IMG/VR virus record: IMGVR_UViG_3300045988_166150 | Location: 1-64,000 of that record | From: a virus | Reading direction: 5' to 3' (one strand) | DNA length: 64,000 nt | Shown: positions 44,509 through 44,688 of the stretch, piece after piece | Numbering within the stretch: the stretch's first letter is position 1 | Layout: each line of letters opens with the position of its first letter | Notes under the pieces: generated by a model | Databases searched by the model: none | Seen by the model: the letters and a program-made list of their open reading frames with translations, nothing else | Told to the model about the DNA's origin: nothing | Translations under genes and position numbers: made by a program

Positions 44509-44688
44509 CAAGAGGAATATGAGTGGCGAAAAAGGTAGCCGCATAAGGAGAAAGAAAACTGTGAAATCCAGTTTGATTGGGGCAAAGAATATAAGATTAT
44601 CTGACCAATAATTCTACATTCTCCAATGTGTTCTTGCTTTGAGTTGTGGTGACTCATGTAAAGTGCAAATCTTTACCTCATATTTTTT
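44509..44688 (+). ncRNA. structured non-coding RNA of about 180 nt with its own promoter and terminator
   Basis: closing helix ATGAGT(44525)/ACTCAT(44652); hairpins GTGGC/GCCGC, AACTG/CAGTT; helices GGAGAA/TTCTCC and ATTGG/CCAAT; terminator GTAAAG/CTTTAC + T6. Confidence 0.65.
44658..44688 (+). terminator. intrinsic terminator of the ncRNA
   Basis: 6-bp stem, 7-nt loop, ATATTTTTT tail. Confidence 0.6.

Follow-up and report, generated by a model that had tools for sequence, protein, structure and literature searches.

The 64,000-nt stretch of DNA analysed here (the window; positions 1 to 64,000 of the IMG/VR virus record IMGVR_UViG_3300045988_166150) contains a 180-base unit at positions 44509-44688, referred to as RNA1. 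RNA1 is very probably an anticodon-less, tRNA-Leu-derived member of a family of tRNA-like RNAs and not a Y RNA; this judgement concerns its identity and no single function. RNA1 has its own promoter, a conserved tRNA-like scaffold with covarying helices and no anticodon arm, and it is under purifying selection. The family is large and, from sequence comparisons, apparently consists of undescribed phage tRNA mimics that have no Rfam model. A sequence-only reading of the window had proposed a stand-alone structured non-coding RNA with a Y-RNA-like terminal helix, transcribed from a promoter at 44474: the promoter and the stand-alone RNA are both borne out, but the ends of RNA1 form a freely covarying tRNA acceptor stem rather than a conserved Ro-binding helix.

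A family of phage tRNA-like RNAs

An IMG/VR scan with a 16-mer of RNA1 (GGCGAAAAAGGTAGCC) returned mostly coding-sequence noise and a single informative locus, L083, with four paralogous units that share the 16-mer. These units and RNA1 have four features in common: their 5' strand can pair with the 3' end, they contain the string UGGCGRAAWAGGUA and a hairpin closed by a UGCAAAU loop, and the complementary 3' strand is present; insert lengths in the L083 units are 6 to ~130 nt. The 5' string that they share is the D arm of class II tRNA-Leu and also matches cyanophage tRNA-Leu genes. Tandem paralogues are frequent: apart from the four in L083 (1-1440), there are two each in L098 (12085-12374) and L208 (2093-2358).

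A gapped motif that makes no demand on pairing (GTGGYGRAAWAKRT-N{96,126}-GTGCAAATC) matches at least 120 IMG/VR loci, compared with the roughly 4 that we estimate for chance. Among the matches listed there are 110 distinct units, counted without any filter. At least six of seven acceptor pairs form in 100 of these 110 units (80 are perfect) when the 7 nt ahead of UGG are compared with the 7 nt past the T stem, while about 1% would be expected by chance; a 6-bp T stem is present in 102. In A5, an alignment of 86 units that had been pre-filtered for pairing, 98.3% of the cells are paired versus 36-52% in slid controls, 12 of the 16 pairs change on both sides and all four Watson-Crick types are used at acceptor positions 1-6. 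A5 also admits G-U pairs, indicating an RNA on this strand. Hardly any variation is seen across the family in U8, G9, the D arm GCG-GAAUAGGUAGA-CGC, a YAU junction, the G7-C66 pair and the UGCAAAU loop. Outside these positions there is more freedom: U-A and A-U prevail at the first acceptor pair, pair 3:70 can be U-A, A-U, G-C or C-G, and the discriminator, scored in 95 units, has counts of 42 for U, 40 for A, 7 for G and 6 for C. No CCA is encoded.

A covariance model (R1) was built from A5 with RNA1 left out. Run against the window, R1 has a single match at 44517-44683 (69.8 bits, E 8.6e-20) that covers the full length of the model (model positions 1-145).

The family units occupy the usual sites of phage tRNA genes, either inside tRNA islands or adjacent to ArpU, HNH and terminase genes. 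Similar sequences are present in at least 107 deposited phage genomes, with hosts that include Enterococcus, Listeria, Leuconostoc, Bacillus and Lactobacillus; they carry no RNA annotation there, save for genuine tRNA-Leu genes in cyanophages. Leuconostoc phage Ln-9 and Bacillus phi3T are carriers, and so is Enterococcus phage phiFL2A, which has a unit in the gap between ArpU and terS. This unit and one of L083 (456-514) are minimal members of 57-59 nt that keep the scaffold alone, which is why the scaffold, not the insert, is probably the functional core. One member (L013, 15126-15294; R1 41.7 bits) lies in the tRNA island of a related phage with a Ro-like protein, ~5 kb downstream of its DUF2828 gene, and has the canonical T loop UUCAAAU, so that the family extends beyond what the UGCAAAU seed pattern captures. 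Several inserts (for example in L088, L111, L127 and L142) contain a second, canonical T arm (GGUUCGAUUCC).

The family is invisible to standard annotation. An Rfam scan of 17 unit-bearing loci at gathering thresholds identified only ordinary tRNAs, ROOL and cow-rumen-4 nearby and left the units uncovered, and a scan of the four L083 units at E<=10 returned nothing. In the literature searched on DUF2828, on the conserved strings and on phage tRNA-like or tRNA-mimic RNAs we found no description of the family.

RNA1 on the shared scaffold

The promoter and the parts of RNA1 are as follows:

44474..44502 (+): sigma-70-type promoter, TTGACA, 17 nt, TGcTATAAT; 12/12 matches, extended TG, upstream A/T-rich tract
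44509..44516 (+): predicted 5' leader CAAGAGGA, presumably removed by RNase P; placed from where the promoter lies and where the R1 match starts (44517)
44517..44523 (+): acceptor stem 5' strand AUAUGAG; R1 alignment, helix covaries across 86 family members
44524..44542 (+): U8, G9 and class II (tRNA-Leu type) D arm GCG-AAAAAGGUAGC-CGC; R1 alignment, nearly invariant
44543..44654 (+): lineage-specific 112-nt insert that replaces anticodon and variable arms; family inserts 6-130 nt, hypervariable
44655..44657 (+): conserved CAU junction; C-A-U consensus, with U as alignment column 181 (invariant T)
44658..44676 (+): T arm with 6-bp stem GUAAAG/CUUUAC and loop UGCAAAU; 6-bp stem in 102/110 units, stem covaries
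44677..44683 (+): acceptor stem 3' strand CUCAUAU, without encoded CCA; covariation, R1 alignment, discriminator statistics
44684..44688 (+): U5 trailer abutting the acceptor helix; from the sequence, possibly a termination or 3'-processing site

The acceptor stem AUAUGAG/CUCAUAU has 7/7 pairs. The D arm, UG GCG AAAAAGGUAGC CGC at 44524-44542, has a 3-bp stem and an 11-nt loop, keeps A14, A15, G18, G19 and A21 and follows the family consensus UGGCGGAAUAGGUAGACGC. Positions 44655-44683 read CAU GUAAAG UGCAAAU CUUUAC CUCAUAU; judged by its place in the alignment, the junction U is the analogue of position 48 and could pair with A15. The T loop UGCAAAU is family-specific and has a G in place of the pseudouridine-55 of tRNAs.

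This architecture reassigns most of the strings on which the Y-RNA proposal had been built. Closure of the transcript had been placed at ATGAGT (44519-44524) and ACTCAT (44652-44657); both strings are present, but the family model closes the RNA via 44517-44523 with 44677-44683, and ACTCAT merely duplicates the acceptor 3' strand and overlaps the CAU junction and a local hairpin. By our estimate, several 6-bp complements ~130 nt apart occur by chance in 180 nt. Covariation across phages was found for the acceptor and T helices, and the terminal helix that covaries differs from the proposed ATGAGT/ACTCAT. The hairpin GTAAAG-TGCAAAT-CTTTAC followed by CTCATATTTTT, taken for an intrinsic terminator, is the 6-bp T arm; the terminator scan made no call at RNA1, and the hairpin has 2 G-C pairs and stands 7 nt ahead of the T run. 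The presumed Ro-binding 5' strand (GUGGCGAAAAAGGUAG, likened to GGUCCGAAGGUAG) is the conserved class II tRNA D arm (U8, G9, 44524-44542), and the corresponding 3' strand (GGTGACTCAT) lies at the insert/T-arm junction and contains the conserved CAU of the family.

The insert contains the local hairpin UGAGUU/GACUCA and all the interior helices of the sequence-only reading (GGAGAA/TTCTCC, AACTG/CAGTT, ATTGG/CCAAT). These fared differently: three RNA1 variants back two mutually exclusive central folds about equally, AACUG/CAGUU is the only one of them common to all predicted folds, and GGAGAA/TTCTCC and ATTGG/CCAAT give way to other pairings in the folds of the relatives. Among the three sequence variants, which are the only ones, one compensatory change (G-C to A-U) fits an alternative 15-bp hairpin. 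What the insert has in common with one subfamily is limited to short motifs (UAAG following the D arm, GUUGUGG(U)GA ahead of the T arm); an alignment with the inserts of that subfamily yielded no shared consensus fold. The minimum free energy (MFE) of the whole unit has a z-score of -1.5 relative to shuffles, a weak thermodynamic case. A 14-nt match of RNA1 nucleotides 37-50 to the DUF2828 coding sequence is purine-rich (E 0.29) and was judged to be due to chance.

Rfam 15 has no match to RNA1, neither in the window at gathering thresholds nor at E<=10 in 44300-47800 or in 44495-44700 (206 nt); the last search included the Y_RNA, tRNA, tmRNA (transfer-messenger RNA) and skipping-rope models. 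A skipping-rope identity, considered because of a resemblance by eye, was dropped on this result. ARAGORN predicts no tRNA in RNA1; in 111 units of the family, it predicts no tmRNA (-m) and one spurious tRNA in intron mode. RNA1 as an intron-containing tRNA or tmRNA was rejected on these results.

Conservation of RNA1 among close relatives

RNA1 is flanked by a 137-aa open reading frame (ORF; 44042-44455) and by a gene for a 474-aa protein (45166-46590), with nrdD and nrdG upstream. The promoter design of RNA1 recurs at six other sites in the window, near-identical at 44710-44738 and at five more; some of these sites precede protein genes.

Identical copies of RNA1 are present in two ENA contigs. 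Closer homologues of the downstream 474-aa protein were looked up and syntenic loci were recovered in this way, including L059-L062, L064 and L067. RNA1 of L059-L062 and L067 is 95-96% identical to RNA1 of the window, while in the same relatives identity is 79-81% for the promoter and the neighbouring 137-aa gene and 84.5% for the gene for the 474-aa protein (L067). This higher conservation of RNA1 than of its flanks indicates purifying selection. In the L059 and L067 relatives, an unconstrained MFE fold already yields acceptor and T arms. L064 (downstream protein 86% identical) has kept the promoter and the extreme 5' and 3' ends, with the RNA1 body cleanly deleted.

Further away, RNA1 is not readily found. 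No homologue was detected in distant phages with the downstream protein (65-68% identity) or in 41 bacterial genome loci; nhmmer and blastn-short searches of 58 loci returned identical copies only; in INPHARED, blastn returned only promoter-like matches and megablast of 10 kb nothing; and exact searches had no match in IMG/VR (22-mer and 17-mer) or JGI metagenomes (24-mer). A search with a T-arm 22-mer identified three further family members, with unrelated inserts. In L007 and L008, the slot beside the 137-aa neighbour is occupied by another ORF and a different RNA. In L007, which has the closest IMG/VR relative of the 137-aa gene, this region (4240-4667) consists of the extra ORF followed by a promoter-driven RNA of ~400 nt without Rfam match, immediately ahead of a skipping-rope RNA. 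In L064 (1-2900) and L059 (91-2240), nrdD is fragmented and LAGLIDADG-like and HNH/NUMOD ORFs are close by; this suggests homing-endonuclease, intron or intein insertions in the relatives, with none in the intact nrdD of the window (41331-43529).

The Ro-like protein and the Y-RNA alternative

The 474-aa protein encoded at 45166-46590 (+) is a DUF2828/DUF7788 protein and belongs to PHROG 850 ("RNA-binding protein"). It has no match in PDB at the sequence level. Its AF2 model (pLDDT 82) has Ro60/TROVE structures as the top nine Foldseek matches in PDB (E 1e-8 to 4e-6, ~500 columns, TM ~0.55), and a Ro60-like fold of TROVE and vWA domains is thus predicted. The hunch of the sequence-only reading about this protein was therefore a good one. 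Between RNA1 and the protein gene lie the following features:

44710-44738 (+): second perfect promoter, drives the ACAGCAA modules
44760-44852, 44862-44925, 44934-44991 (+): three tandem ACAGCAA modules, G(C/A)CNC-NN-ACAGCAA...GNG(G/U)C-U(U/A)G
44998-45121 (+): class I tRNA-like RNA with encoded ACCA; a fourth, degenerate module (AGCAGCAA) replaces the anticodon arm

With a Ro60-like fold predicted for its neighbour, RNA1 could be a Y-RNA-like molecule with a terminal stem bound by that protein as an adaptor or regulator. Bacterial Y RNAs are encoded less than 4 kb from rsr on the same strand, many have a tRNA-like domain, and the Rsr-binding motif GNCGAAN0-1G lies near their 5' end (PMC4201824). 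RNA1 is 480 nt upstream of the protein gene on the same strand and its GGCGAA resembles the start of that motif. We nevertheless give this explanation only a slim chance. No Y_RNA match was obtained in the 206-nt search at E<=10. The stretch GGCGAAAAAG has three bases between GAA and G and therefore misfits N0-1; its family consensus is GGCGGAAUAGG, and it is the tRNA D arm. The ends of RNA1 form the covarying acceptor stem and no conserved protein-binding helix. Across 121 family loci (1.02 Mb), the search for DUF2828 homologues, which did not extend separately to canonical TROVE genes, had no match. RNA1 is missing from the 47 other neighbourhoods of DUF2828 genes, and L064 has lost it while retaining the protein. 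Proximity of RNA1 to a Ro-like gene is thus confined to the window and its closest relatives.

The ACAGCAA hairpins and the class I tRNA-like RNA are a far better partner candidate for the Ro-like protein. One to five copies of the ACAGCAA motif are present within 500 nt upstream of 40 of 47 DUF2828 genes from phages and bacteria, down to 35% protein identity, and the module helix covaries. Rfam has no match to the modules at 44710-45121. On these sequence patterns, the modules are a candidate Y-RNA analogue or a candidate autoregulatory leader of the Ro-like protein.

Comparison with known Y RNAs agrees with this separation. Like YrlA (Chen et al. 2014, PMC4201824), RNA1 is non-coding, has a module of tRNA-like D arm, T arm and acceptor stem and, in this window, shares its strand with a nearby Ro-like gene; it may also be a substrate of RNase P and of the CCA-adding enzyme, as YrlA of M. 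smegmatis is. Unlike RNA1, which ends in its acceptor stem, YrlA ends in a Ro-binding stem and its acceptor stem is capped; RNA1 also lacks GNCGAAN0-1G and its family has no linkage to a Ro/DUF2828 gene. With metazoan Y RNA (RF00019), RNA1 shares the size of a short pol III transcript, ends that pair and a superficial likeness of strings (CGAAGGUAG versus CGAAAAAGGUAG). It differs in that it has no match to the RF00019 model, which has a terminal stem with the conserved Ro-binding helix GGUCCGA/UUGACU and a bulged C; the similar string is a tRNA D loop and the terminal helix is not conserved in sequence.

Relation to tRNA and tmRNA, and further alternatives

Among the closest known systems is class II tRNA-Leu. 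Shared with it are the D arm U8-G9-GCG-GAAUAGGUAGA-CGC, the 7-bp acceptor stem, A14, A15/U48, G18, G19, A21 and the location among phage tRNA genes. The family differs from tRNA-Leu by the absence of an anticodon arm, by a T stem of 6 bp (5 in tRNA) and a UGCAAAU loop with G55, by a first pair that is usually U-A or A-U, by a discriminator that is U as often as A and by the lack of an encoded CCA, and it is missed by both the Rfam tRNA model and ARAGORN. The tRNA cloverleaf (RF00005) with its 5-bp anticodon stem and 7-nt loop was recognised in RNA1 by neither program. With the tRNA-like domain of tmRNA, the family shares an acceptor stem formed by the ends next to a T arm, the missing anticodon arm and a large internal insertion; it differs from tmRNA in having no G3:U70, no tag ORF and no pseudoknot architecture and in having a full D arm, and neither ARAGORN nor the Rfam tmRNA models match it. 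mascRNA, viral tRNA-like structures and engineered tRNA scaffolds are likewise tRNA-shaped, non-decoding and processed by tRNA enzymes, with a body that provides stability; they come from other kingdoms and origins, whereas RNA1 has a phage gene to itself and carries a hypervariable insert in the place of the anticodon.

Given this relationship, RNA1 might be a decaying tRNA-Leu pseudogene, or an intron-containing tRNA gene, without function of its own. The D arm of tRNA-Leu type, the position of the unit among tRNA genes and the strings CUUAAG/CUUAGG in some subfamily members, reminiscent of Leu anticodon loops, fit such an origin. Decay is highly improbable, though, for an anticodon-less architecture with a 6-bp T stem and UGCAAAU loop that recurs in more than 100 diverged phages with compensatory changes, and for an RNA that is more conserved than its flanks and has its own consensus promoter. 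An intron is contradicted by the single spurious tRNA that the intron mode of ARAGORN reports in 111 units and by the inserts, which are too short for group I/II introns and have no anticodon stem.

Next to no weight can be given to RNA1 as a short mRNA, either for a basic 30-aa peptide (44519-44611, MSGEKGSRIRRKKTVKSSLIGAKNIRLSDQ), the sole plus-strand ORF, or for a 7-aa leader peptide: the ORF follows a GAGG motif, its first 21 codons contain a single substitution, which is silent (AGA to AGG, L059), and promoters of the same design also drive protein genes, but its Shine-Dalgarno-ATG spacing is 3 nt where neighbouring genes have ~8 nt, L059 and L067 carry a 1-nt deletion that shortens it from 30 to 21 aa, no gene is called in the source contigs and no PHROG matches, and RNA1 scores 69.8 bits on a structural RNA model whose members share no ORF. 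The wrong spacing and the truncation in relatives lead us to reject a coding role; the unit is non-coding in practice.

Several points weigh against the assignment of RNA1 to the tRNA-like family or limit its reach. The figures from A5 come from units already filtered for pairing, and the unfiltered figures are the counts from the 110 units. The invariance of D arm and T loop is partly built in because the seed pattern fixed those sequences; a relative with the canonical UUCAAAU loop exists. The predicted folds of the insert disagree on the central helices. The deletion in L064 means that RNA1 is dispensable for the phage, in some hosts at least. The mixed discriminator and the lack of an encoded CCA weaken the idea of a substrate for leucyl-tRNA synthetase (LeuRS). 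Finally, the maturation steps and the role in trans proposed below are reasoned from general tRNA biology.

Proposed mechanism and possible functions

RNA1 would be transcribed from its own strong promoter, and its tRNA core would fold to an L shape. Host RNase P, 3' trimming and CCA addition could then mature it to a very stable RNA. The missing anticodon arm and the 13-bp stack of acceptor and T stems would exclude it from decoding, and it would most likely act in trans by imitating the upper half of a tRNA, via a protein that reads the tRNA elbow and the acceptor end.

What such a mimic does can be said only tentatively. Phage tRNAs were recently shown to counter tRNA-cleaving defence systems, and recent work on them (PMC11555353) makes a decoy role against tRNA-targeting defences attractive: it is possible that RNA1 is a decoy or sponge that occupies a host factor or defence nuclease directed at tRNAs. 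A stable scaffold that displays the variable insert is conceivable too, if somewhat doubtful. A role as non-ribosomal carrier of an aminoacyl group (Leu) is unlikely. E. coli LeuRS reportedly requires neither the anticodon arm nor the variable arm and charges minimal tRNA-Leu substrates, which makes aminoacylation of RNA1 conceivable; the mixed A/U discriminator of the family makes it unlikely as a general rule. A cis-acting processing or insulator signal is improbable, and some other function is about as unlikely as the carrier role.

More broadly, and with considerable doubt, phages of Firmicutes and relatives may widely encode unrecognised anticodon-less, tRNA-Leu-derived RNAs in dedicated non-translational roles, either as decoys of tRNA-targeting immune nucleases or toxins or as private aminoacyl carriers for phage enzymes. 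The 13-bp acceptor/T stack and the T loop with G55 would then bar these RNAs from the ribosome, and the hypervariable insert would tune their specificity.

Other RNAs in the window

A skipping-rope RNA (RF02924, 45.9 bits) at 46592-46739 (+) starts 2 nt past the Ro-like gene's stop codon. Within its 68-nt insertion is a hairpin, CCGGAUUUUCGG, and then UACAGCAC, which resembles the ACAGCAA modules. In every related phage examined (L001-L005, L007, L009), skipping-rope RNAs are present in the tRNA islands. Several hundred unassigned non-coding bases (46740-47100 and 47385-47556) lie amid the skipping-rope RNA, a tRNA-Asp (47101) and a tRNA-Phe (47309), the latter with the T loop UGCAAGU. A third tRNA-like sequence at 47557-47626 (+) matches the Rfam tRNA model with 37.8 bits over positions 7-64 only and is not called by ARAGORN. 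At 5870-6130 (+), a promoter of the same design as that of RNA1 (5870-5898) is followed by ~230 nt without ORF up to the next promoter. At its start (AGUUAAG...) this region is similar to the module transcripts of related phages at their 5' ends, and it may encode a further stand-alone RNA.

Significance

Mimicry of tRNA recurs in biology, as in tmRNA, YrlA, viral tRNA-like structures and mascRNA. The family of RNA1 combines strict conservation of the upper half of a tRNA with a hypervariable insert and lacks an anticodon arm, and it is present in more than 100 uncultivated phage contigs and about 100 deposited genomes. For the window itself, the Y-RNA question is redirected: the candidate RNA partners of the Ro60-like protein are the adjoining ACAGCAA modules and not RNA1. 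R1 would let annotators recognise an "empty" intergenic region that is common close to terminase genes and within tRNA islands, and a family that lacks both RNA annotation and an Rfam model would add a new player to phage-host RNA biology.

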